Of a DNA stretch of 64,000 nt, positions 2,396-37,017 are shown piece after piece; the stretch's first letter is position 1, and every line of letters starts with the position of its first letter. Source of the DNA: Candidatus Gottesmanbacteria bacterium (GTDB lineage Bacteria; Patescibacteriota; Microgenomatia; UBA10105; UBA927); the NCBI GenBank assembly GCA_016218255.1, contig JACREN010000002.1:4029-68028 (forward strand), in the 5' to 3' direction. Under the pieces are notes generated by a model. It searched no databases, was not told the origin of the DNA, and was given only the letters and a program-made list of their open reading frames with translations. Position numbers and translations under genes: made by a program.

Positions 2396-4372
2396 TTATC
2401 GCGCGTGTATCCGCCGAATAGCCTTCTGGAAAATTCCTGGGGTTGAGAACGCACCTCCCGATAACACAATTTGACAGTGATTTTTTGCATAGCGATCAGA
2501 TAAACATGATGCTATCACGTCATTTGCAGCCTGGCTATCAAAAAATCTATAGCGATACAATGCTGCAAGCTCTATAGAAAAATAGCTCCAATCAGGAGCG
2601 AAATCCCGCGCAAGGAGCCATAATTTTTTGGTTTCCATTAAGTCTTTATCTATCAAGGAAAGACCAATTAAATACATAAGTTTTGCATATGCTGTTGGAG
2701 TCTTTGCTGCAAAAATATCTGCATTATTCCGCGTATAGAAAGAAGCATACTCCGGAGCACCAAAATCTATACGCGCAATCTTGGTCCGCAACTCTTGTGG
2801 AAGCGCCACCTGACTTAGTCTGTTTATCGCCAAACCAATAACCGAAGGTGATATTGGACGCTTTTCGAATAGGTATTGTATATATTTTATATGATAATCA
2901 ACGTTTATCGGATCCCAACGAATGGCATTCTCATAAAAAGACTGAGTCTCATCTTGTTTGTTGATGCCCATATCGGTTTTAGCAGTTGCATACATCACCT
3001 CCGGGTCGCGGCGGTTTAACCACAATATACCCTTTTGAACCGCGTATGAGGATGCCAGCAATGCATCCAGGGCATTCTGCTTGTAATACGGAGCCGCATA
3101 CCATGCCCACTGCTTTTTTCCCGGCAGAACGCCGAACAAAACACCGGCCATGGAGGAAAGATAAAAGAGCAGCAGCACAAATAGAAACAGTTTTGTCCGC
3201 ATATATTGTGTGCGAGAGTCTAACGAAAATTGCAGAGATACACTGCCGGATGCAAGCCCAAGGCTCGCCCAAAACAATAACCAAATTGAGGAATAATTTA
3301 GATTGAATTCAAATACGCTATACAAAAGAATGAGAACAATCGGAACAAATAGGGGAGACCAAAAACTGCGGCGCAGTGATATACCCAAAATAAATATCAA
3401 AAGCACGGCGCCTACAAAACCCAACTCCACCACTGTCTCCAGCGGAAAACTGTGGGCATACCAGGAATACGTCTGCGGTGCCTCCTGAAGACGCTTAGAC
3501 TGAAGGAAGAACGTCCCGGGCCCGCTGCCAAATAACGGCCGTTCAGCTATCGCCATAGCCGCCTGCCTCCAATAGCCCCACCGGCTGTCCTGAGTGATCG
3601 GCCGCTTTACAATCTGGCGAATAAGCGCATTGGTTGATTTCTCAAAACGAAAAACGTCGTACCGAAGAGAAATGAATGACACAGCCCCAAACAGAACCAG
3701 AAACAAGCAGGCGAAACTAAAAATAACCCGGCGTTCGATTCGGTCGCGGCGCCATAAAAATTGCCCAAGCAAATATACAACAAGAAGCATCCATGCCGCG
3801 CGGGCAAACGTCAGAATCATACCCAATATAAATACTGAAACTATTACCCATCTCAATTTTTTGAAATCGTTCGTAAAAAAAATCAAAGGGAAAATAGGAA
3901 GCAGAAGATCCGCCAAATGATTATGTCCATAGTTGGCATACAAAAGATTCATGAGGGGTAAAAATTCAGCAAACGATGGGAACAGCATAAATACCCACGA
4001 CAACCCAATCGCGATAAACCCGATGGTAATAAGACTTTTCCGGTACCACATCACTGCGCCATCGGAAGCCACCGAATAAAACAGGATAAAAAGGAGGTAT
4101 CCTTCGATATAACGGATAGACGCGCTGACAGAATAGGCAATACTGTCCGAAAATAATGTCCGGCCTGCCATATAGAGAAGCAATACGATCCAACCCCGAG
4201 ATAGGGAGCGGGGAAGCGGACGAATTGTGAAAGACCCTAACGAAGCATACCGAATCGCATAGAGGATCAAGATGCCGAGCGCCCAAAATATGTCGACGAA
4301 CGGCTGTTTCCCGTCACCCACAAGGAGCGATACGGCAAACAAAAGGCAAAAGGCTACGGTCAGTCGTTTCAT
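2396..4372 (-). CDS. O-antigen ligase (Wzy_C) family polytopic membrane protein with C-terminal TPR-like region; candidate O-oligosaccharyltransferase (PglL/TfpO-like)
   Basis: 658 aa, about 10 predicted TM helices; Wzy_C signature RWGYWR...RPLFGSGPGTF...YAHSFPLETVVELGFVGA; C-terminal soluble repeat region. Confidence 0.65.
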   Translation of the reverse strand: MKRLTVAFCLLFAVSLLVGDGKQPFVDIFWALGILILYAIRYASLGSFTIRPLPRSLSRGWIVLLLYMAGRTLFSDSIAYSVSASIRYIEGYLLFILFYSVASDGAVMWYRKSLITIGFIAIGLSWVFMLFPSFAEFLPLMNLLYANYGHNHLADLLLPIFPLIFFTNDFKKLRWVIVSVFILGMILTFARAAWMLLVVYLLGQFLWRRDRIERRVIFSFACLFLVLFGAVSFISLRYDVFRFEKSTNALIRQIVKRPITQDSRWGYWRQAAMAIAERPLFGSGPGTFFLQSKRLQEAPQTYSWYAHSFPLETVVELGFVGAVLLIFILGISLRRSFWSPLFVPIVLILLYSVFEFNLNYSSIWLLFWASLGLASGSVSLQFSLDSRTQYMRTKLFLFVLLLFYLSSMAGVLFGVLPGKKQWAWYAAPYYKQNALDALLASSYAVQKGILWLNRRDPEVMYATAKTDMGINKQDETQSFYENAIRWDPINVDYHIKYIQYLFEKRPISPSVIGLAINRLSQVALPQELRTKIARIDFGAPEYASFYTRNNADIFAAKTPTAYAKLMYLIGLSLIDKDLMETKKLWLLARDFAPDWSYFSIELAALYRYRFFDSQAANDVIASCLSDRYAKNHCQIVLSGGAFSTPGIFQKAIRRIHAR

Positions 4373-5366: not shown

Positions 5367-5829
5367 TTATGTCTCCTCCGGTTGAAACCTGTATGCGGTA
5401 TGATTTTACAATTCCGACCATTGTAATCGTTACCGCATCGCTTGAAAGCAGTCCCCGGGTTAACACGCCATAAACAAACGAGGCGGGCACAGGCGAAAAC
5501 GTAATTCCTGAGGGCAACGCGGTAGAAAGCGCATCTCCTACGGCGCCTTCTGTGCACTCTGCAACAACCGTATATGTCGAATCCGTAAATTGTACGGTAT
5601 ATCCCACAAGCTCAGTGCACCCGCTGGTTGGTTTTTTCGATGAAGCGGCAAGCGTCTGGGCATAACGAAGATTATTTTTCATCGTCAGGGCTGCCTGCTT
5701 CAAGCGCTGATTATCATTGTAATTATTATAATTAACGATAAGCCCGCCAACCGCAAGAAGTGAAATACCGATCGTCACGATAAGCTCTATGAGAGTAAAC
5801 CCAGAACGAGATGCAAAAAGCCGCTTCAT
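5347..5829 (-). CDS. type IV pilin-like minor pilin
   Basis: N-terminus RSGFTLIELIVTIGISLLAVGG; 160 aa. Confidence 0.75.
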   Translation of the reverse strand: MKRLFASRSGFTLIELIVTIGISLLAVGGLIVNYNNYNDNQRLKQAALTMKNNLRYAQTLAASSKKPTSGCTELVGYTVQFTDSTYTVVAECTEGAVGDALSTALPSGITFSPVPASFVYGVLTRGLLSSDAVTITMVGIVKSYRIQVSTGGDINDLGFL

Positions 5830-6266
5830 GGACTCTTGACCCCGAAATTATGGGCTGGGGTCTGCGATGCATCAGGGGTGCAGCTGTTACTTGCGGGCGT
5901 TTCTGCTTCAAGGTACGCGCTTACACAGTAGCCGTAATAACTGCCTCCCGAAACATCAGTTGCTTTATACCGGTATACATAATCGGGATCTTTTGGGTCT
6001 GCTGGGATAGACGGCATGTAGGTAGCCACTAAATCAGCACTTAAATTAGACATATCCGTCCAGCTACCGGCCCCGGTACTGGGATAATACCCATTGTCGG
6101 TTCGGTACATCTCGATAGCCGACCGGATCTGCTCGACGTCGCTTTTCCGCTTTGTATCACGGGATCTACGGTTTACCGATCCATACGATACGATACCTAT
6201 AGCAGTCAATATTGCGATAATAGATATCGCAACCAATATCTCCATGAGGGTAAATCCTTTTTTCAT
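5826..6266 (-). CDS. GspG/PulG-like pseudopilin
   Basis: MKKGFTLMEILVAISIIAIL...RDTKRKSDVEQIRSAIEMY (T2SS-G-like N-domain). Confidence 0.75.
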   Translation of the reverse strand: MKKGFTLMEILVAISIIAILTAIGIVSYGSVNRRSRDTKRKSDVEQIRSAIEMYRTDNGYYPSTGAGSWTDMSNLSADLVATYMPSIPADPKDPDYVYRYKATDVSGGSYYGYCVSAYLEAETPASNSCTPDASQTPAHNFGVKSP

Positions 6267-6268
6267 AA

Positions 6269-6712
6269 TTACTGAGCGCTTTTGACGCAGTACAACCCCG
6301 TGTATTCACTTGGTGCTGCGGCAGCTGCACAGTCCGTCACCTCATTGGCTTCTCCCTCAAGACCAGCACAAACACAAAAACTTGCAGCACTACAACTGCT
6401 CCATCCCGTGACCGTTGTGTAATCTGTTCCGCTCTTGGGATCAGTCGGCATACCGTTTGGCAAATATGTCACCGCCAGAGTGCAGGTAGCCGGATATGAT
6501 CCTTTATTGTCTGCATAATACTGCTCAAAACCATTCTGCACTTCCTTCAGATCGTTTTTTCGTCTGTTATCACGCGCCTTCTTTTGCCCTGTGGTATACG
6601 CCGAAACTGCGATCGAAACTAAAATCGCAATGACCGATACCGCCACCAATAATTCCATAAGACTAAAACCTATAGAATGTTTCCCCACCATGCGAGTATT
6701 TGAGTTTTCCAT
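6269..6712 (-). CDS. GspG/PulG-like pseudopilin
   Basis: GFSLMELLVAVSVIAIL...ARDNRRKNDLKEVQNGFEQYY; start moved to internal Met so it does not run into pilD. Confidence 0.7.
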   Translation of the reverse strand: MENSNTRMVGKHSIGFSLMELLVAVSVIAILVSIAVSAYTTGQKKARDNRRKNDLKEVQNGFEQYYADNKGSYPATCTLAVTYLPNGMPTDPKSGTDYTTVTGWSSCSAASFCVCAGLEGEANEVTDCAAAAAPSEYTGLYCVKSAQ

Positions 6713-31618: not shown

Positions 31619-33289
31619 ATGCATCCTGAAACCTTAACTCAACGCATAGCAATTATGGGCGAATCCGCGGACTCCGACAGACCACCTGTTTCATCACACC
31701 TTCCGGACATCGTTGAGACACCGATCACAAATAGTAATCCGTATTACGACTTCAATGACATCCTTGAACCTGCCATAAAGAAATATGCCGCTGCTTTCGG
31801 AGGCGGCGGACCGGGAGAGCCTACTGATACAGAAAAAAGCGCAAGACACTTACATTTTATTCTCACCACCAAAAGACAACTCAGTACGGACTGGGATCAT
31901 ACCATCGTTGATAGCAAACCGATTTTTGATGATGATATAAAAATAACCGCAAGAGAAGGGTATCTGCCAATTGAATTAGAGAATATCGACCTCCTATGTC
32001 TATTGGCATTAACGGGAACAGCAGTGAATATAGAAACCGGAAAAGGAGCTAACGCATGGCGCTGGGCAATGTACATCCAAGAGCGATTGGATCTTATTGC
32101 CACAAAATTAGGAAACAAAAGGCACGACAAACTTGGCAGCCCATTTCACAACAGACTTCTAACGCTTCATGACAACCAACCAGTAGTCTTTACCTACACA
32201 TCCAGCAATGGAGCCAGATCTATTGATCTCTTATCGAATCAAATCATTATAGACAAGCCTATTCCGCTTACCGCCTGGGAGAGACTCCAGAAACATGGCG
32301 ATCTTCTTCGTGACTCAACGCTCCCACAGCAATTGGAAAGAATACAAAAACGCCGCAATCATTTTGGAAGCGTGACACTGGACTCTCCGGTTATGACCCC
32401 ACGCGTAAAATATGATGAAACTAAAGATCATTATGCGCTGGATCGGGTTAAGGGCATACAGGTACCAGTCACCAATCAGGTGTCACCAGACAATTATGAA
32501 CCTATTATTCGATATCAAGATCTAACCCGCGAGGTCGACCAGCAACTGTCAGAACCCGAGCTCAATCACCGCATGCAGCTCCAGGCAGATATCCGGGATT
32601 TTGCGGTCTTTATCGCAGGAGAAAGCACAAAAGCAAACCTGGTTCTAGATATTCAAAAAATCAAAAATGATCCAACGCTCAATTCCCGTTGGGAACAAAC
32701 AACCGGCATTCATATAACCGATAACGCGACGCTCTATCACGCAGTCCAAGCTTTGTTTAGAGATACCGGAGTCAAAATTTTTCAGGCACATGCACAGGGA
32801 ATCACCTATTTCGATATCGGTGCAATAGACAAACAAAATAGTTCTCGAAAGGTAAAAAATTATACCCAGGGCCTTCTGCGATGCTGGATGAGAGAGATAC
32901 ACGGAATAGAAGACGAATCCGTAGCGCCGGAAATCCCAAAGTTTTTCACAACAAGCCTGGGCGATGCACCTCCAACGACTGAGAATGAATTTACCAACGA
33001 TGCCCCAATGATAAGCCATACCGGAGGGGTAAACGTCGGACCGTTTGATGATACACAAATTAAAAAAAGAAACGGTTGGCCAATGAATCTCAACGCGCTG
33101 TGTCCACAAGCAAAAAATATACAACTCACACACTGGTATCTGATGCAACTTCTTGTGGGAAGTGTGCAGGAACAATACCTTTCAAAGACAGTCGATGCGT
33201 TTATTGCTATCCTTGCATCGCTCCGACAAGAAAGAAGAACGGCTTTGAAAGAAACATCTGTAATTGGAAAAACATCTAGTGTACAATAA
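31619..33289 (+). CDS. hypothetical protein, 556 aa, no recognisable domain
   Basis: Long intact ORF, soluble, no TM/signal; overlaps downstream hexokinase-family gene start; divergent from 30993-31439 operon. Confidence 0.55.
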   Translation: MHPETLTQRIAIMGESADSDRPPVSSHLPDIVETPITNSNPYYDFNDILEPAIKKYAAAFGGGGPGEPTDTEKSARHLHFILTTKRQLSTDWDHTIVDSKPIFDDDIKITAREGYLPIELENIDLLCLLALTGTAVNIETGKGANAWRWAMYIQERLDLIATKLGNKRHDKLGSPFHNRLLTLHDNQPVVFTYTSSNGARSIDLLSNQIIIDKPIPLTAWERLQKHGDLLRDSTLPQQLERIQKRRNHFGSVTLDSPVMTPRVKYDETKDHYALDRVKGIQVPVTNQVSPDNYEPIIRYQDLTREVDQQLSEPELNHRMQLQADIRDFAVFIAGESTKANLVLDIQKIKNDPTLNSRWEQTTGIHITDNATLYHAVQALFRDTGVKIFQAHAQGITYFDIGAIDKQNSSRKVKNYTQGLLRCWMREIHGIEDESVAPEIPKFFTTSLGDAPPTTENEFTNDAPMISHTGGVNVGPFDDTQIKKRNGWPMNLNALCPQAKNIQLTHWYLMQLLVGSVQEQYLSKTVDAFIAILASLRQERRTALKETSVIGKTSSVQ

Positions 33290-33296
33290 CCTCGAT

Positions 33297-34373
33297 ATGA
33301 TGAAATTTTCTACCCTCCAAACCATTACCGATAATTTTTATAAAGAGCTCCAATTGGCAAAAGCCGGAAAAAAAACGAGCCTGCCGTTTATCAAACACCA
33401 GCTTTCACTCACTCCCAAAGTAAAAAAAGGCGAGGTATTTCAGGTGCTCCGCATCGGCGGATCCATATACCAAAATGCACTGGTGAAACGGATCAACGGC
33501 AAAATCGCCATCGAGCGAAGTGCCCAGCGGCCATTGCCGGTATTTAGAACCCAGGAAATTTTTCTCTCCTTCATCGATCGGGTACTGGATAAATCCGTCA
33601 ATCATCTGGCACTCAACTTCGCCTATCCCATGAAGCCGCTATCCCGTGACGGGTATCTGGACGGTACGCTGGTATCAGGCAGCAAAGAACATGAATTTGC
33701 AGGCCTCGTGGGCAACGCAGTAGGAGAGACGATTGAACGATATATCAAAGACAAACAGAAGCGCACGATCCATACGGCTCTAGCCAATGACACAGTATGC
33801 CTGCTTCTGTCCGGGCTTACCCAATTTCCAAAAAACAATCTCGTCGCCGGCATCATCGGCACCGGACTCAATTTTGCGATATTCTTAGATGAACAAACCC
33901 TCGTCAATTTGGAGTCGGCAAATTTTGACAAATTTCCACAAAGCCAGGAAGGCAAACTCATAGACCAGGGATCCAATCACCCGGGGTCGTCACTGTTTGA
34001 AAAAGAAATTTCCGGCGGCTATTTATACAAAAACTTTAACATCCGCTTAGCCAAAGAAGGACTGGGGTACCCGAACGTTTCTTCAACCAAAGAAATGGAC
34101 AAGGTAGCCTTTAACGACATCCCCAAAGTGTCACTGCTTGCCCGTGAAGTATCTGAACATTCTTCATCGCTCGTGGCCTGCCAGATAGCTGGCATTACAA
34201 AATTGTATAACCGCGACTGCACGGTCGTTATTGAGGGCAGTTTATTCTGGAAAGGGTACCGGTACAAAGAAAACGTCGGCGTCGTATGCCGCCAGCTTGA
34301 ACCGGATCACCAGGTCTCCTTCGTCTTCGTCGAAGAAAGCGGGATTTTAGGAGCAGCGAAACTCATTTCGTGA
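33297..34373 (+). CDS. hexokinase-family sugar kinase
   Basis: Hexokinase signature blocks: VLRIGGSIYQNALV (phosphate-1), LALNFAYPMKP (LGFTFSFP-like), HTALANDTVCLLLSG (connect-1), AGIIGTGLNFAIF (phosphate-2), SGGYLYKN (adenosine). Confidence 0.7.
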   Translation: MMKFSTLQTITDNFYKELQLAKAGKKTSLPFIKHQLSLTPKVKKGEVFQVLRIGGSIYQNALVKRINGKIAIERSAQRPLPVFRTQEIFLSFIDRVLDKSVNHLALNFAYPMKPLSRDGYLDGTLVSGSKEHEFAGLVGNAVGETIERYIKDKQKRTIHTALANDTVCLLLSGLTQFPKNNLVAGIIGTGLNFAIFLDEQTLVNLESANFDKFPQSQEGKLIDQGSNHPGSSLFEKEISGGYLYKNFNIRLAKEGLGYPNVSSTKEMDKVAFNDIPKVSLLAREVSEHSSSLVACQIAGITKLYNRDCTVVIEGSLFWKGYRYKENVGVVCRQLEPDHQVSFVFVEESGILGAAKLIS

Positions 34374-34376
34374 CCG

Positions 34377-34779
34377 GTTTGTCATTGCGAGGAGTCTTCG
34401 ACGAAGCAATCTCTTGTTTATGAGTGTCCATCACTACTTTGTATATATAATGACAAATGTAGTTCATACAACCCTGTATACTGGCGTTACTAATCATTTA
34501 ACTCGAAGAGTATTTGAACATAAATTCCATCAAGGCCCGTCATTTACATCCAAATATAAAGTAAACAGACTTATATATTATGAAATATTTACTGATATTC
34601 GAGAGGCAATACAACGAGAAAAGCAAATCAAAGCGGGTTCAAGACAGAAAAAAATTGACCTTATTCGTTCTATGAATCCTGGATGGGAAGATTTATTTAA
34701 GAAAATAATTGCCTAAATCTACTATCGGAGTAATCAAACAAGAGATTGCCGCGTCACTTCGCTCCTCGCAATGACAAAC
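34377..34779 (+). mobile_element. about 400-bp element with terminal inverted repeats carrying a GIY-YIG nuclease ORF
   Basis: Perfect 18-bp TIR GTTTGTCATTGCGAGGAG (34377-34394) / CTCCTCGCAATGACAAAC (34762-34779) plus inner 14-bp IR GCAATCTCTTGTTT (34406-34419) / AAACAAGAGATTGC (34736-34749); fills the whole hexokinase-xerC intergenic gap. Confidence 0.6.
34420..34716 (+). CDS. GIY-YIG nuclease family protein (small, YhbQ/UPF0213-like)
   Basis: FVYIMTN...LYTGVTNHLTRRVFEH (GIY..YIG, Arg, Glu catalytic pattern); about 98 aa. Confidence 0.75.
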   Translation: MSVHHYFVYIMTNVVHTTLYTGVTNHLTRRVFEHKFHQGPSFTSKYKVNRLIYYEIFTDIREAIQREKQIKAGSRQKKIDLIRSMNPGWEDLFKKIIA

Positions 34780-35732
34780 TATTTCCGGTGAAATTTTGTG
34801 TGAATTTCGCGAAGTTGCGGATTCGTAATGTGTGTATACACTTGCGTTGTGGCAACATTTTTATGCCCCAGCATTTCCTGGATCGCGCGAAGATCCGCAC
34901 CGCCGTGCAGAAGATCTGTCGCAAAACTGTGGCGGAGCCCGTGCGGGGTAATTTTTATGGGCAGCCGGGCTTTTTTCACATATTTTTCCACTAACCGTTG
35001 GACGCTTCGGGCAGTCAGCCGCAACGACTCGCCGCTGGTCTCGCCTTCAACCGGTTTTTTTCCGGAATACCGGATGAATATGGGCTTTCCATCATCTTCG
35101 CGGCCGGACAGATATCGCCGCAACCACTCAGCCGCACTGTCTGATAAAAATACCACGCGCGGCCTGCGGCCTTTACCGATGACGCCGAATTCTTTGCGGT
35201 CCAGATTAATCTGGTCGCGATTGAGTGATACAAGCTCTGATACACGAAGTCCTGTGGAAAACAACACTTCCAAAATCGCTTTGTCCCGCAAACCCTCGGG
35301 CGTTGAAATTTCCGGCATATTGAGCAACCGATCCACCTGCTCACGTTCAAGAAATTTTATGGAACGGCTTTCTGCTTTCGGCAGTTCAATGGTTTCTGGA
35401 GCAAGCGTTTTGACGCCGTGCCGTGTGAGATATTTGAGAAACGACCGGAGGGCAATCAGATGATAATTTTGCGTCACGCGCTTGAGCGATATGCCATGAG
35501 GATCAACGAAACGGGAAAGAAATAAACGGTATTCATGAATCGTATCGGGGGTAATAGCAGAAAGCGGAATAGTTTTCACAGGAGTTTTCACGGATGGAGC
35601 AGAGGAGTCTCCTCTAAGAAATCTCAAAAACCGCTCTAAATAGTGCCGATAGTTGCGGATCGTGAGCCGGGAAACATTTTTCTCAATTTCGAGGTATTCT
35701 AGAAAGTCTTGGATATATTGCTCAAGATTCAT
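34779..35732 (-). CDS. tyrosine site-specific recombinase XerC/XerD family
   Basis: N-terminal SAM-like core-binding domain; catalytic box HGLRHSFATDLLHGGADLRAIQEMLGHKNVATTQVYTHI. Confidence 0.85.
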   Translation of the reverse strand: MNLEQYIQDFLEYLEIEKNVSRLTIRNYRHYLERFLRFLRGDSSAPSVKTPVKTIPLSAITPDTIHEYRLFLSRFVDPHGISLKRVTQNYHLIALRSFLKYLTRHGVKTLAPETIELPKAESRSIKFLEREQVDRLLNMPEISTPEGLRDKAILEVLFSTGLRVSELVSLNRDQINLDRKEFGVIGKGRRPRVVFLSDSAAEWLRRYLSGREDDGKPIFIRYSGKKPVEGETSGESLRLTARSVQRLVEKYVKKARLPIKITPHGLRHSFATDLLHGGADLRAIQEMLGHKNVATTQVYTHITNPQLREIHTKFHRK

Positions 35733-36426
35733 AAATGCCTCTACAATCCATATTGTACGACATAGAGCAAATTGTCAACATATCTTTACAACTGGACGCT
35801 TCAGGTCGGCATACCTTGATTCTCGCGACGGTCAAGGTCCAGACCTCTTCATGCTTTCCTAGTATTTTCCGCCAAGGCCGTGACCATCGCTGCGAAAAGA
35901 TATGCCTCCCAAGCGTCTATAAATGGTAATAAATCTAGCCTCAGTTTTGAGGCTGTAGGATGCCCTAGGAAGGCTTTTCCAGACACACGAGCACTAGATA
36001 GTCATCCAGGCTACAGATAAAAAGTTCATGGTTCATAGTTCATAGCAAAACGAGTTCAGATAAAACAAGGGAATACACAGTAGATAGACTGATGATTGTA
36101 TATTCAATAAAAGTCCATTTTGCGATGATTTTCTACGCGTCGCAACAACGGACGCATACATTTGGGTACGCACACGAGAGAGGTATACGTCGCAAAAGTA
36201 TTCTTGTGCGACATCATAGGTGATTATACTCTGCCAGAGCCAGATCCATAGAAATCCTGCTGTTTGACCCGGGGAATAACTCACAGGAATATACCAACAT
36301 GTATCTGCGCCCCCTGAAGAAGAGACTGTTCTTCTTGGAGTGTCAAATCGGCACAAAATACCACTTCTCCGGATACACCTAAAAACGCCCATTCGGCTTT
36401 TCTATGGACGTCGCAAATAGAGCGTT

Positions 36427-36462
36427 ATTATGCTCTAAACACTAACTTTTGAAGCTAATACT
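36427..36462 (+). repeat. direct repeat copy 1 (ATTATGCTCTAAAC...TTTTGAAGCT)
   Basis: About 29/36 identity with copy at 36607-36652; a third inverted partial copy (TTTAGAGCATA) at 36672-36682. Confidence 0.5.
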
Positions 36463-36606
36463 ACGCTGCTTCCGGTGGTTTATTGAGTGTATTTTGGAGC
36501 GTAAAGACAGCACAAACTGTATCATTTGAAGCTATTTCTGTTCCCCGCTGGCACTCATGTGAACCAAGCAACAAGCCGCTCATGTTTCGGTTTATTTTAG
36601 CCTATC

Positions 36607-36652
36607 ATTATGCTCTAAACTCTTATTTTTGAAGCTGATTTCACCAACATTG
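36607..36652 (+). repeat. direct repeat copy 2
   Basis: See copy 1; both lie in the 1.3-kb ORF-free island 35733-37017. Confidence 0.5.
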
Positions 36653-36956
36653 TGCGCTTCTATATCAATAATTTAGAGCATATCAACAATCTAAACCTCC
36701 ATAATTACGCACACATTGTGTACTCAATCCGAAGAAGAGTAGAACGGTGTTTAATACAGCGGAGGCGAGGCAGGCTTGCCCCCTATGGAGACAGACGTAC
36801 TTTACTTCCCGATACTGTTTGTGAAATGAACACTATTAATACCGTGAAAAGAATTATCTCTCCCGCACCACTTCGCGTGCGGGACAGGCACAAAATAAAT
36901 GTCCTATAGTTTTAAGTTATCCACAAATATATAATATAAATATATCAAACCATATC

Positions 36957-36986
36957 AACGTATCGATGCTTCGCATCGTACGTTGT
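36957..36986 (-). terminator. possible rho-independent terminator for membrane-protein gene 37018-37839
   Basis: Hairpin CGATGC-TTC-GCATCG (extended stem with one bulge) 35 bp past the stop, followed on the minus strand by U-rich tract. Confidence 0.3.
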
Positions 36987-37017
36987 GAACACTACCCTCT
37001 CCCCGACTTCCCTGTTC

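Follow-up and report, generated by a model that had tools for sequence, protein, structure and literature searches.

A probable SRM–ssn–SRM cassette, an Ssn-family GIY-YIG nuclease gene between inverted hairpin motifs, at the hexokinase–xerC junction of a Gottesmanbacteria contig

What kind of genetic element is formed by a small GIY-YIG nuclease gene and the nested inverted repeats that enclose it, when together they fill the space between two convergent genes completely? We addressed this question in a stretch of 64,000 nucleotides from Candidatus Gottesmanbacteria bacterium (GenBank assembly GCA_016218255.1, contig JACREN010000002.1, positions 4,029 to 68,028 of the forward strand), hereafter the window, in which the unit lies at positions 34377-34779 between a hexokinase gene and an xerC-type tyrosine recombinase gene. 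A reading made from the letters alone, hereafter the sequence-only reading, had seen in it a small homing or MITE-like (miniature inverted-repeat transposable element) mobile element outside the named insertion sequence families. Our analysis indicates that the unit is very probably an SRM–ssn–SRM cassette, i.e. a gene for an endonuclease of the Ssn family between two inverted copies of its presumed cognate hairpin, the Ssn-related motif (SRM). The Ssn/SRM system has already been named and in part characterized (PMC11893778), and what is new here is a member from a host of the candidate phyla radiation (CPR) with a motif variant that the published motif string misses. The enzymatic activity, cut positions and biological role of the window protein, as discussed below, we infer, its mechanism by homology to SsnA of Neisseria.

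The outer repeat, GTTTGTCATTGCGAGGAG, occupies 34377-34394 on the plus strand and its exact reverse complement 34762-34779, with 18/18 positions matching. A scan of the 64 kb with up to three mismatches returned these two matches in total, with 0.09 expected and 0/100 shuffled sequences reaching two. The inner repeat pairs GCAATCTCTTGTTT (34406-34419) with AAACAAGAGATTGC (34736-34749), perfectly over 14/14 nt and at 90% complementarity when extended to 20 nt. With two mismatches allowed, the inner 14-mer on its own is not significant (3/100 shuffles give three hits); its meaning is drawn from its position and from comparative data. The left outer repeat begins 3 nt after the hexokinase stop codon (TGA, 34371-34373), and the right one shares base 34779 with the xerC stop codon (CTA on the plus strand, 34779-34781), so that the inverted repeats and the open reading frame (ORF) between them, a unit of 403 bp, take up the entire spacer. 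The GC content is 0.34-0.36 within the unit versus 0.45-0.52 in its flanks. In all these points, i.e. both repeats, the 98-aa ORF and its boundaries, the sequence-only reading was borne out.

The gene between the repeats (plus strand, from the ATG at 34420 to the TAA at 34716) encodes a single-domain GIY-YIG nuclease of 98 aa, which we assign to the Ssn (SsnA-like) family on the basis of Pfam and of its homology to SsnA. The GIY-YIG domain PF01541 (E=4.3e-14, 53 bits versus a cutoff of 22.6) covers residues 8-80 and is the sole Pfam hit of the protein, no NCBIfam model scored above its cutoff, and neither Pfam nor NCBIfam gave a DNA-binding or homing-type extension. The PADLOC anti-phage defence models gave no hit. 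Across 41 aligned homologues, the predicted catalytic residues Y9, Y20, R30, H34, E67 and N86 do not vary.

With 94 aa and a single GIY-YIG domain, SsnA of Neisseria meningitidis belongs to the CDD family cd10448 (Chenal et al. 2025, Nat Commun 16:2388, PMC11893778). Its target NTS, a hairpin repeat of about 28 nt (CGTCATTCCCGCGMAVGCGGGAATCYRG), is bound as single-stranded DNA (ssDNA) only, and neither the complementary strand nor duplex DNA nor RNA is bound; SsnA cleaves at a site 3 nt 5' of the 28-nt NTS oligonucleotide, the three bases before the palindrome being most critical for cleavage and the C after the palindrome for binding (PMC11893778). Mutations of Y6, Y17 and E64 abolish the activity of SsnA (PMC11893778), and these residues align with Y9, Y20 and E67 of the window protein. 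In a tblastn search of 7.3 Gb, the window protein matched one locus in each of two N. gonorrhoeae chromosomes (E=9e-15), and in the pairwise comparison it is 41% identical to the gonococcal SsnA orthologue over 90 aa without gaps, with an E value of 3e-24 where E<1e-10 against Neisseria SsnA is the published threshold of homology. The gonococcal ORF (…VYILASQRNGTLYIGVTSDL…REKQLKKWNRAWK…) has seven exact NTS copies within 3.3 kb and a one-mismatch NTS copy directly after its stop codon. The only solved structures detectable by sequence were the UPF0213 proteins 1ZG2 and 1YWL, with 27 and 17 bits. The window protein thus lies far nearer SsnA (75 bits) than UPF0213, and its membership of cd10448 is argued indirectly, by these bit scores. 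The two gonococcal chromosomes, the 2.17-Mb NZ_CP119142.1 and another, are listed in PLSDB as plasmids and are barely annotated.

The start of the gene deserves correction. In the public annotation (P0002) the protein has 88 aa and starts at the second ATG, at 34450, which leaves out residues 1-10 including Y9; since this start lies after Y9, the 88-aa call truncates the catalytic domain. The exact 98-aa protein had no match on public contigs, a consequence of the use of the second ATG in the public call. Y6 and Y9 are conserved in all 41 aligned homologues, so the reading from 34420 is the better call, and moving the start codon there includes the first catalytic tyrosine. Moreover, Ssn-family ssDNA nuclease with cognate hairpins is a more accurate annotation than "GIY-YIG nuclease family protein" or "excinuclease ABC subunit C".

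The sequence-only reading described the repeats as nested terminal inverted repeats. They are not two sets of transposon ends: a single hairpin motif of about 31 nt is present as one copy per side in inverted orientation, its conserved 5' half being the outer repeat and its conserved 3' half the inner one, and the non-matching segment between them is the variable distal stem-loop of this module. On the strand running into the gene the module follows the grammar (T)GTC-ATTGC-GA-P2-GAA/GCG-GCAAT-C, in which ATTGC and GCAAT are the two arms of the stem P1, P2 is a variable stem-loop and the GTC end points outward. The left SRM-like module (34381..34411, plus strand) consists of GTC, the P1 5' arm (34384-34388), the interior GAGGAGTCTTCGACGAA with a small GTC/GAC stem (34389-34405), the P1 3' arm (34406-34410) and C. 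The right SRM-like module (34744..34775, minus strand) has GTC at 34775-34773, ATTGC at 34772-34768, the interior GAGGAGCGAAGTGACGCG at 34767-34750, GCAAT at 34749-34745 and C at 34744; its grammar is that of the left module and its interior is different. The left module ends 8 nt before the start codon and the right one begins 27 nt past the stop.

In these terms the left outer arm (34377..34394, plus strand) is composed of four flanking nucleotides (GTTT), GTC, the P1 5' arm and the first six nucleotides of the interior, and the right outer arm (34762..34779, minus strand) ends on base 34779, the first base of the CTA that is the minus-strand xerC stop codon. The left inner arm (34406..34419, plus strand) is the P1 3' arm GCAAT, C and TCTTGTTT, the last of which ends directly at the ATG and is common only to the closest relatives (L002 and L003), and the right inner arm (34736..34749, minus strand) pairs with it. 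A further perfect inverted repeat of 12 nt, CTTCGTCGAAGA / TCTTCGACGAAG, has one arm at the end of the hexokinase coding sequence (34325-34336) and the other in the interior of the left module (34395-34406); it is probably due to chance but could pair in a way that rivals the module hairpin.

The same architecture was found in the nearest relatives. A protein 90% identical to that of the window is located at the same hexokinase locus in L002, one of 75% identity follows alaS in L003, and proteins of 73% (L001) and 66% identity (L004) are encoded on other Gottesmanbacteria contigs, that of L004 between frr and a TrwB-like gene and that of L001 next to another recombinase gene. In each of these four loci the start codon is closely preceded by GTCATTGCGAG-(variable)-GAAGCAATC and the stop codon closely followed by the reverse complement of this sequence, and the variable middle is often a clean hairpin, e.g. 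CCCCGCC-AACT-GGCGGGG in L001 and GTCCGAT-TAA-ATCGGAC in L003. Using a protein-family profile, we collected 80 further loci from named genomes, so that together with the window, L001, L003 and L004 a total of 84 loci was analysed. They represent more than 15 phyla, among them Chloroflexota, Ignavibacteria, Bacteroidota, Cyanobacteria, Planctomycetota, Elusimicrobiota, Nitrospirota, Bacillota, Proteobacteria and several CPR groups, with proteins 55-65% identical across them; within the CPR the family is present in Gottesmanbacteria, Woesebacteria, Daviesbacteria and Saccharibacteria.

Modules of the grammar GTC-X5-GA…-X5'-C with perfect stems, facing inward, were found on both sides of the gene at 50 of the 84 loci and on at least one side at 72; with one mismatch allowed in P1 these numbers rise to 61 and 76. 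Near the gene the modules are oriented, with 69 (+) versus 32 (-) upstream and 75 (-) versus 21 (+) downstream, and within a cassette the left and right modules are mostly unlike in class and interior. Of 370 family-type modules, 173 stand apart from any ssn gene elsewhere in the 10-kb flanks, in either orientation and often in arrays, thus solo copies of the module are common in other genomes. Dense arrays resembling those of repetitive extragenic palindromic (REP) sequences and bacterial interspersed mosaic elements (BIME) were seen in L043, L092 and L091, with 32, 30 and 22 matches to a loose grammar per 10 kb, chance matches included.

The pairing of the two stems is supported by covariation. 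The 206 distinct interiors of ATTGC-class modules follow the plan GA-P2-GAA, sometimes ending with GCG or GTG, where P2 ranges from a minimal GC-GAA-GC (with AC…GT and CC…GG variants) up to stems of 13 bp; a second common class of interiors reads GAGGA-P2-GACGAA. When modules were detected by the 5' arm only, variant P1 arms were followed by their own complement, ATCCT by AGGAT in 21/31 cases, ATTCT by AGAAT in 18/22 and ATCGC by GCGAT in 12/16, and the arms ATTTC (5/5) and ACTGC (5/7) were compensated likewise. A P2 end-stem of at least 2 bp is present in 57% of the interiors versus 7% of shuffled ones. In the alignment of the 26-nt class (A2), 99.4% of the cells pair and four pairs are changed on both sides, with 0/500 shuffles equal to it and slid controls collapsing; P1 complementarity is demanded by the detector in this class, so independent support comes from the P2 result and the 5'-arm test only. 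Furthermore, when 297 modules were anchored by the palindrome only, GTC stood upstream in 97-98% and the next base was C in 95%. The conserved purines beside P1 could, in our own interpretation, form tandem G·A pairs.

Several observations weigh against the assignment of the window unit to the Ssn/SRM system. The published degenerate SRM string, HGTCWYN(0-2)YYVSBRHN(0-5)WNVSBRGN(0-2)RNCYNB, finds the Neisseria copies and has 0 matches in the window and L001-L004, and 0 matches within 200 nt of the gene in the 84 loci. It misses the window modules because their stem starts with TTGC and not with TYYV, and since the string finds nothing in this clade, membership of the motif is argued from the shared grammar together with the protein. 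The modules of the window are not convincing hairpins under standard DNA parameters (z-scores of +0.4 to +1.0), whereas the long-P2 modules of relatives fold as P1 plus P2 with z-scores of -3.5 and -2.5; the support for hairpins in the window is thus comparative only. Beyond the two copies that flank the gene no module was found in the 64 kb, nor any sign there of a genome-wide repeat population such as the role in Neisseria depends on. On the side of the protein, the comparison was made with the gonococcal orthologue and not with the meningococcal protein that had been assayed, and in the gonococcal strain compared the ssnA-like ORF has no in-frame ATG. With regard to the missing start, in the gonococcal locus L096 (NZ_CP119142.1, 1880219-1883488) a nearby ATG stands in the +1 frame, which stops after 10 codons, and the gene may be frameshifted.

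If the window protein acts as SsnA does, it would be inactive on duplex DNA and RNA, and its substrate would arise when the DNA is single-stranded, i.e. during replication, repair or the entry of transforming or conjugative DNA. The module would then fold into P1 (ATTGC/GCAAT), a purine-rich GA/GAA internal loop and the distal stem P2, and the enzyme would bind this fold through the palindrome and the C after it and cut only this strand, at a point a few nucleotides 5' of GTC. The cuts are predicted near 34376/34377 on the top strand and near 34779/34780 on the bottom strand, both just outside the cassette. As each strand has one cleavable site only, no single-stranded copy would be released in the manner of IS200/IS605. 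In the window, the perfect 18-bp repeat ends exactly where these cuts are predicted. As a general rule that repeat ends mark cut sites, this did not hold, since the repeat extends by about 1 nt beyond GTC over 49 cassettes, barely above the control, and we note it as a remark only. For the CPR genome, the likeliest role suggested by these comparisons is that of a largely selfish pair of nuclease and target, which would act on ssDNA carrying its own motif and be gained and lost as a unit; such a pair would, for example, limit recombinational replacement by incoming DNA.

A module and gene that are gained and lost together raise the question of whether the cassette also moves by itself. We traced the hexokinase orthologues and read the members of the same 90% protein cluster with their flanks. 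The hexokinase–xerC junction exists in at least three states among relatives that are about 94% identical in the flank. The cassette is present in the window and L002; in L005 the junction reads TAA-TG-TCA, with the two stops 2 nt apart and a near-zero spacer; and in five assemblies (L013-15 and L107-108) a spacer of 62-80 bp holds an unrelated perfect 18-bp hairpin. In remoter relatives the spacer is 115 bp (L007-9), another gene is found (L006) or the neighbours are different (L010-12). The search for empty sites proposed with the sequence-only reading was thus rewarded, with orthologous junctions lacking the insert in L005, L013-15, L107-108 and L007-9; cassette and repeats are absent from them together, and no module was found in any cassette-less allele, those of the remoter relatives included. 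The search for further copies in the 64 kb yielded none.

The divergence of these alleles speaks about the age of the cassette. In the terminal 274 nt of hexokinase the identity among L002, L005 and L013 is 94-95% and that of these three to the window 82-85%, and the cassettes of the window and L002 are 86% identical next to a flank of 85%. Cassette and flanks have diverged in step, so the cassette is older than the split between the window and L002 and no recent insertion. It is an old resident that has since been lost or replaced in the lineages of L005 and L013, unless alleles were exchanged by recombination. The L005 allele cannot be derived from the filled one by one simple deletion. At 1866-1880 it reads TAA-TGTCAT-CGGCGG, where TGTCAT is identical to the initial six bases of the module core and includes the xerC stop; a lost cassette that left a footprint, a target that is preferred, or chance could each account for this. 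The hairpin of the third allele, GAAGGATCGCATCCTTCC…GGAAGGATGCGATCCTTC (4075-4136 in L013, also in L014, L015, L107 and L108), shows no relation to the Ssn motif and lacks a T-run, and two assemblies break exactly in its loop.

Of the alternatives, an autonomous mobile element survives best, in which the GIY-YIG nuclease would mobilize the cassette via its terminal ssDNA hairpins in the way of IS200/IS605 and REP/RAYT (REP-associated tyrosine transposase) systems; it is compatible with an SRM–ssn–SRM cassette and adds movement to it, an addition that we consider unlikely. The layout is that of an insertion sequence, and NTS-ssnA-NTS was likened to an insertion sequence, to IS200/IS605 and to REP/RAYT by Chenal et al., who did not demonstrate mobility (PMC11893778). 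The polymorphism of presence and absence at one junction among close relatives, the relatives of 67-75% protein identity at unrelated loci (L003, L004 and L001), the similarity of the proteins across phyla and the coincidence of the cuts predicted by analogy with the 18-bp repeat ends all agree with movement. Of 49 two-sided cassettes, 10 have direct repeats of 5 nt or more at their borders, where about 3 would be expected. However, these 49 cassettes gave no consistent signal of target duplication: identity beyond GTC extends over a mean of 1.06 nt versus 0.65 nt in mismatched-pair controls, the 4 nt of the window being an outlier. The pentamer CCGGT, which occurs on both sides of the window cassette, was discarded as a target duplication, as its right copy is xerC coding sequence. 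The absence of a second copy in the 64 kb, the unlike modules of one cassette, which transposon ends would not be expected to show, the predicted cuts on opposite strands that would release no single-stranded copy and the in-step divergence at this junction also count against movement, and the gain and loss seen there could be explained equally well by homologous recombination of the flanking DNA. The ssn genes are AT-rich (mean GC 0.35 versus 0.46 in flanks, over the 78 loci with sufficient flanking sequence) and their GC tracks that of the host (r=0.79), which points to long residence; the GC dip as a sign of recent transfer was rejected, low GC being a trait of the ssn family. To our knowledge, no strand-transfer chemistry exists for GIY-YIG enzymes, and this counts against a mobile element as well.

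From the homing or MITE-like element of the sequence-only reading there remain, accordingly, the empty sites in very close relatives, while a second copy, a consistent target duplication and a homing extension are missing and divergence is in step. By its ORF the unit is neither an insertion sequence nor a MITE, as no transposase was recognised and the sole ORF is the GIY-YIG nuclease, where a MITE would have none. That the module and the small GIY-YIG gene form a distinct, widespread class of the Ssn/SRM system which is also an autonomous element moving by recognition of ssDNA hairpins, a mode of movement undescribed for the superfamily, appears distinctly improbable to us.

The repeats might instead act in RNA or in transcription, as a 5' leader hairpin and a 3' terminator or stabilizer, or as autoregulatory operators, and not as nuclease substrates. 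The modules are close to the gene, hairpins form equally well in RNA, and regulation was considered at first for NTS and SsnA by Chenal et al. (PMC11893778). We nevertheless regard this explanation as very improbable. No terminator-like or promoter-like site was found inside the unit, and Rfam gave nothing for the whole window at gathering thresholds and no match to the modules even at E<=10, where the unit returned a spurious snoRNA match only. Furthermore, the downstream copy is a reverse complement, so that in the mRNA its purine-rich GA/GAA loop would be pyrimidine-rich, almost half of the family-type modules of the 10-kb flanks lie away from ssn in both orientations, and Neisseria SsnA does not bind RNA. 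A conserved bidirectional terminator independent of the gene, which the sequence-only reading had named as the contrary case, is excluded, since relatives without the gene have no repeats either and the unit holds no terminator-like site. A literature search with the repeat sequence returned unrelated primers only.

A free-standing GIY-YIG homing endonuclease of the I-TevI/Seg type, which would cut the empty duplex junction and be copied in by repair, has the domain, the coexistence of empty and filled alleles and a weak match, below threshold, to TIGR01453, a model of group I intron endonucleases (E=0.0096), in its favour, but is hardly credible given a score of 16 bits against the cutoff of 56, a 98-aa protein without NUMOD or IENR1-type DNA-binding extension, relatives at unrelated sites and thus no conserved homing site, flanking hairpins that have no counterpart in homing systems, a characterized homologue that does not cut duplex DNA and the rarity of relatives on phages (50,697 phage records gave 2 weak hits, and 2.9 million viral contigs gave 9 relatives, 2 of them with modules).

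The neighbours of the cassette were identified as context. The hexokinase gene to the left (33264..34373, plus strand; P0244, MBI5448744.1, HY948_00260) and the convergent xerC-type tyrosine recombinase gene to the right (34779..35732, minus strand) are both backed by Pfam. Genes of the xerC type near the cassette were found in the window, L001 and L044, all of them CPR, and in 0 of the other 81 loci; with 3/84 loci, a functional tie to xerC was set aside and the vicinity treated as coincidence or as a lineage-specific hot spot. In L044 the xerC-type gene beside the ssn cassette lies at 5484-6377. In L001 a third module stands upstream of an xerC-like paralogue, and the modules at 2811-2836 (-) and 3958-3997 (+) bracket this gene (2932-3948) with their GTC ends facing it. 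In the window, the 1.28 kb after xerC (35733-37017) contain no ORF above 119 aa and no Rfam match, and the AP-endonuclease gene found behind xerC in relatives is missing from the window, where tblastn gave no trace of it. About 600 bp near 36187-36866 are conserved with unannotated DNA of L013 (6216-6799), L007 and L001, at 84% over 198 nt and 97% over 33 nt in the case of L013, and may be an unannotated RNA or small gene.

The window cassette thus extends the Ssn family to the CPR and belongs to a large clade across phyla that uses the bipartite ATTGC/GCAAT motif, undetected by the published string. Around bacterial Ssn homologues, SRM were reported on at least one side in 71% and on both sides in 42% (PMC11893778), and these figures are probably underestimates, because the string misses the ATTGC/GCAAT clade. 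The clade also offers new pairs of enzyme and site for ssDNA tools, and the hexokinase–xerC junction with its three alleles is a place where autonomous movement could be told from recombination of the flanks.

Compared with known systems, the unit shares with the homing endonucleases I-TevI and SegA-G the superfamily of the catalytic domain and the polymorphism of presence and absence; these enzymes bind DNA through long extensions, cleave a homing site in duplex DNA and reside in introns or phages, none of which applies to the window unit. With the UPF0213/YhbQ and Slx1 branch it has in common the small GIY-YIG core and the pattern Y…Y…R…H…E, yet the match to UPF0213/YhbQ is much weaker than that to SsnA (27 versus 75 bits), and we know of no reported association of this branch with flanking hairpin motifs. 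The likeness to REP/RAYT (TnpA-REP, Y1 HUH) and to IS200/IS605 is one of organisation: on either side of a small nuclease gene stand short repeats capable of forming hairpins, which are read as ssDNA, solo or clustered repeats occur elsewhere in many genomes, and whether such systems are domesticated or selfish is debated in both cases. In contrast, the window enzyme would act by GIY-YIG hydrolysis and theirs by HUH tyrosine transesterification, with an unrelated fold, and the window hairpins stand on opposite strands, with one cleavable site per strand per cassette.

The closest counterpart is SsnA with NTS. The window stem is ATTGC/GCAAT, with 5 bp, where the Neisseria stem is ATTCCCGC/GCGGGAAT, with 8 bp; the interior in the window family is bipartite, GA and GAA around a variable P2 of 2-13 bp, and in Neisseria it is a short loop. 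The window holds two gene-flanking copies in 64 kb, whereas Neisseria has hundreds genome-wide; the host is a CPR bacterium (Gottesmanbacteria); and in the gonococcus the NTS copies downstream of the ORF are in direct and not in inverted orientation. Nevertheless, both proteins are single-domain GIY-YIG enzymes of about 95 aa with the catalytic Tyr/Tyr/Glu conserved, both genes are bracketed by directional hairpin motifs, and both motifs follow the grammar of GTC, a palindrome with an AT-rich start and C(T/C). Moreover, the positions that are critical in Neisseria are the most conserved positions of the window module family.

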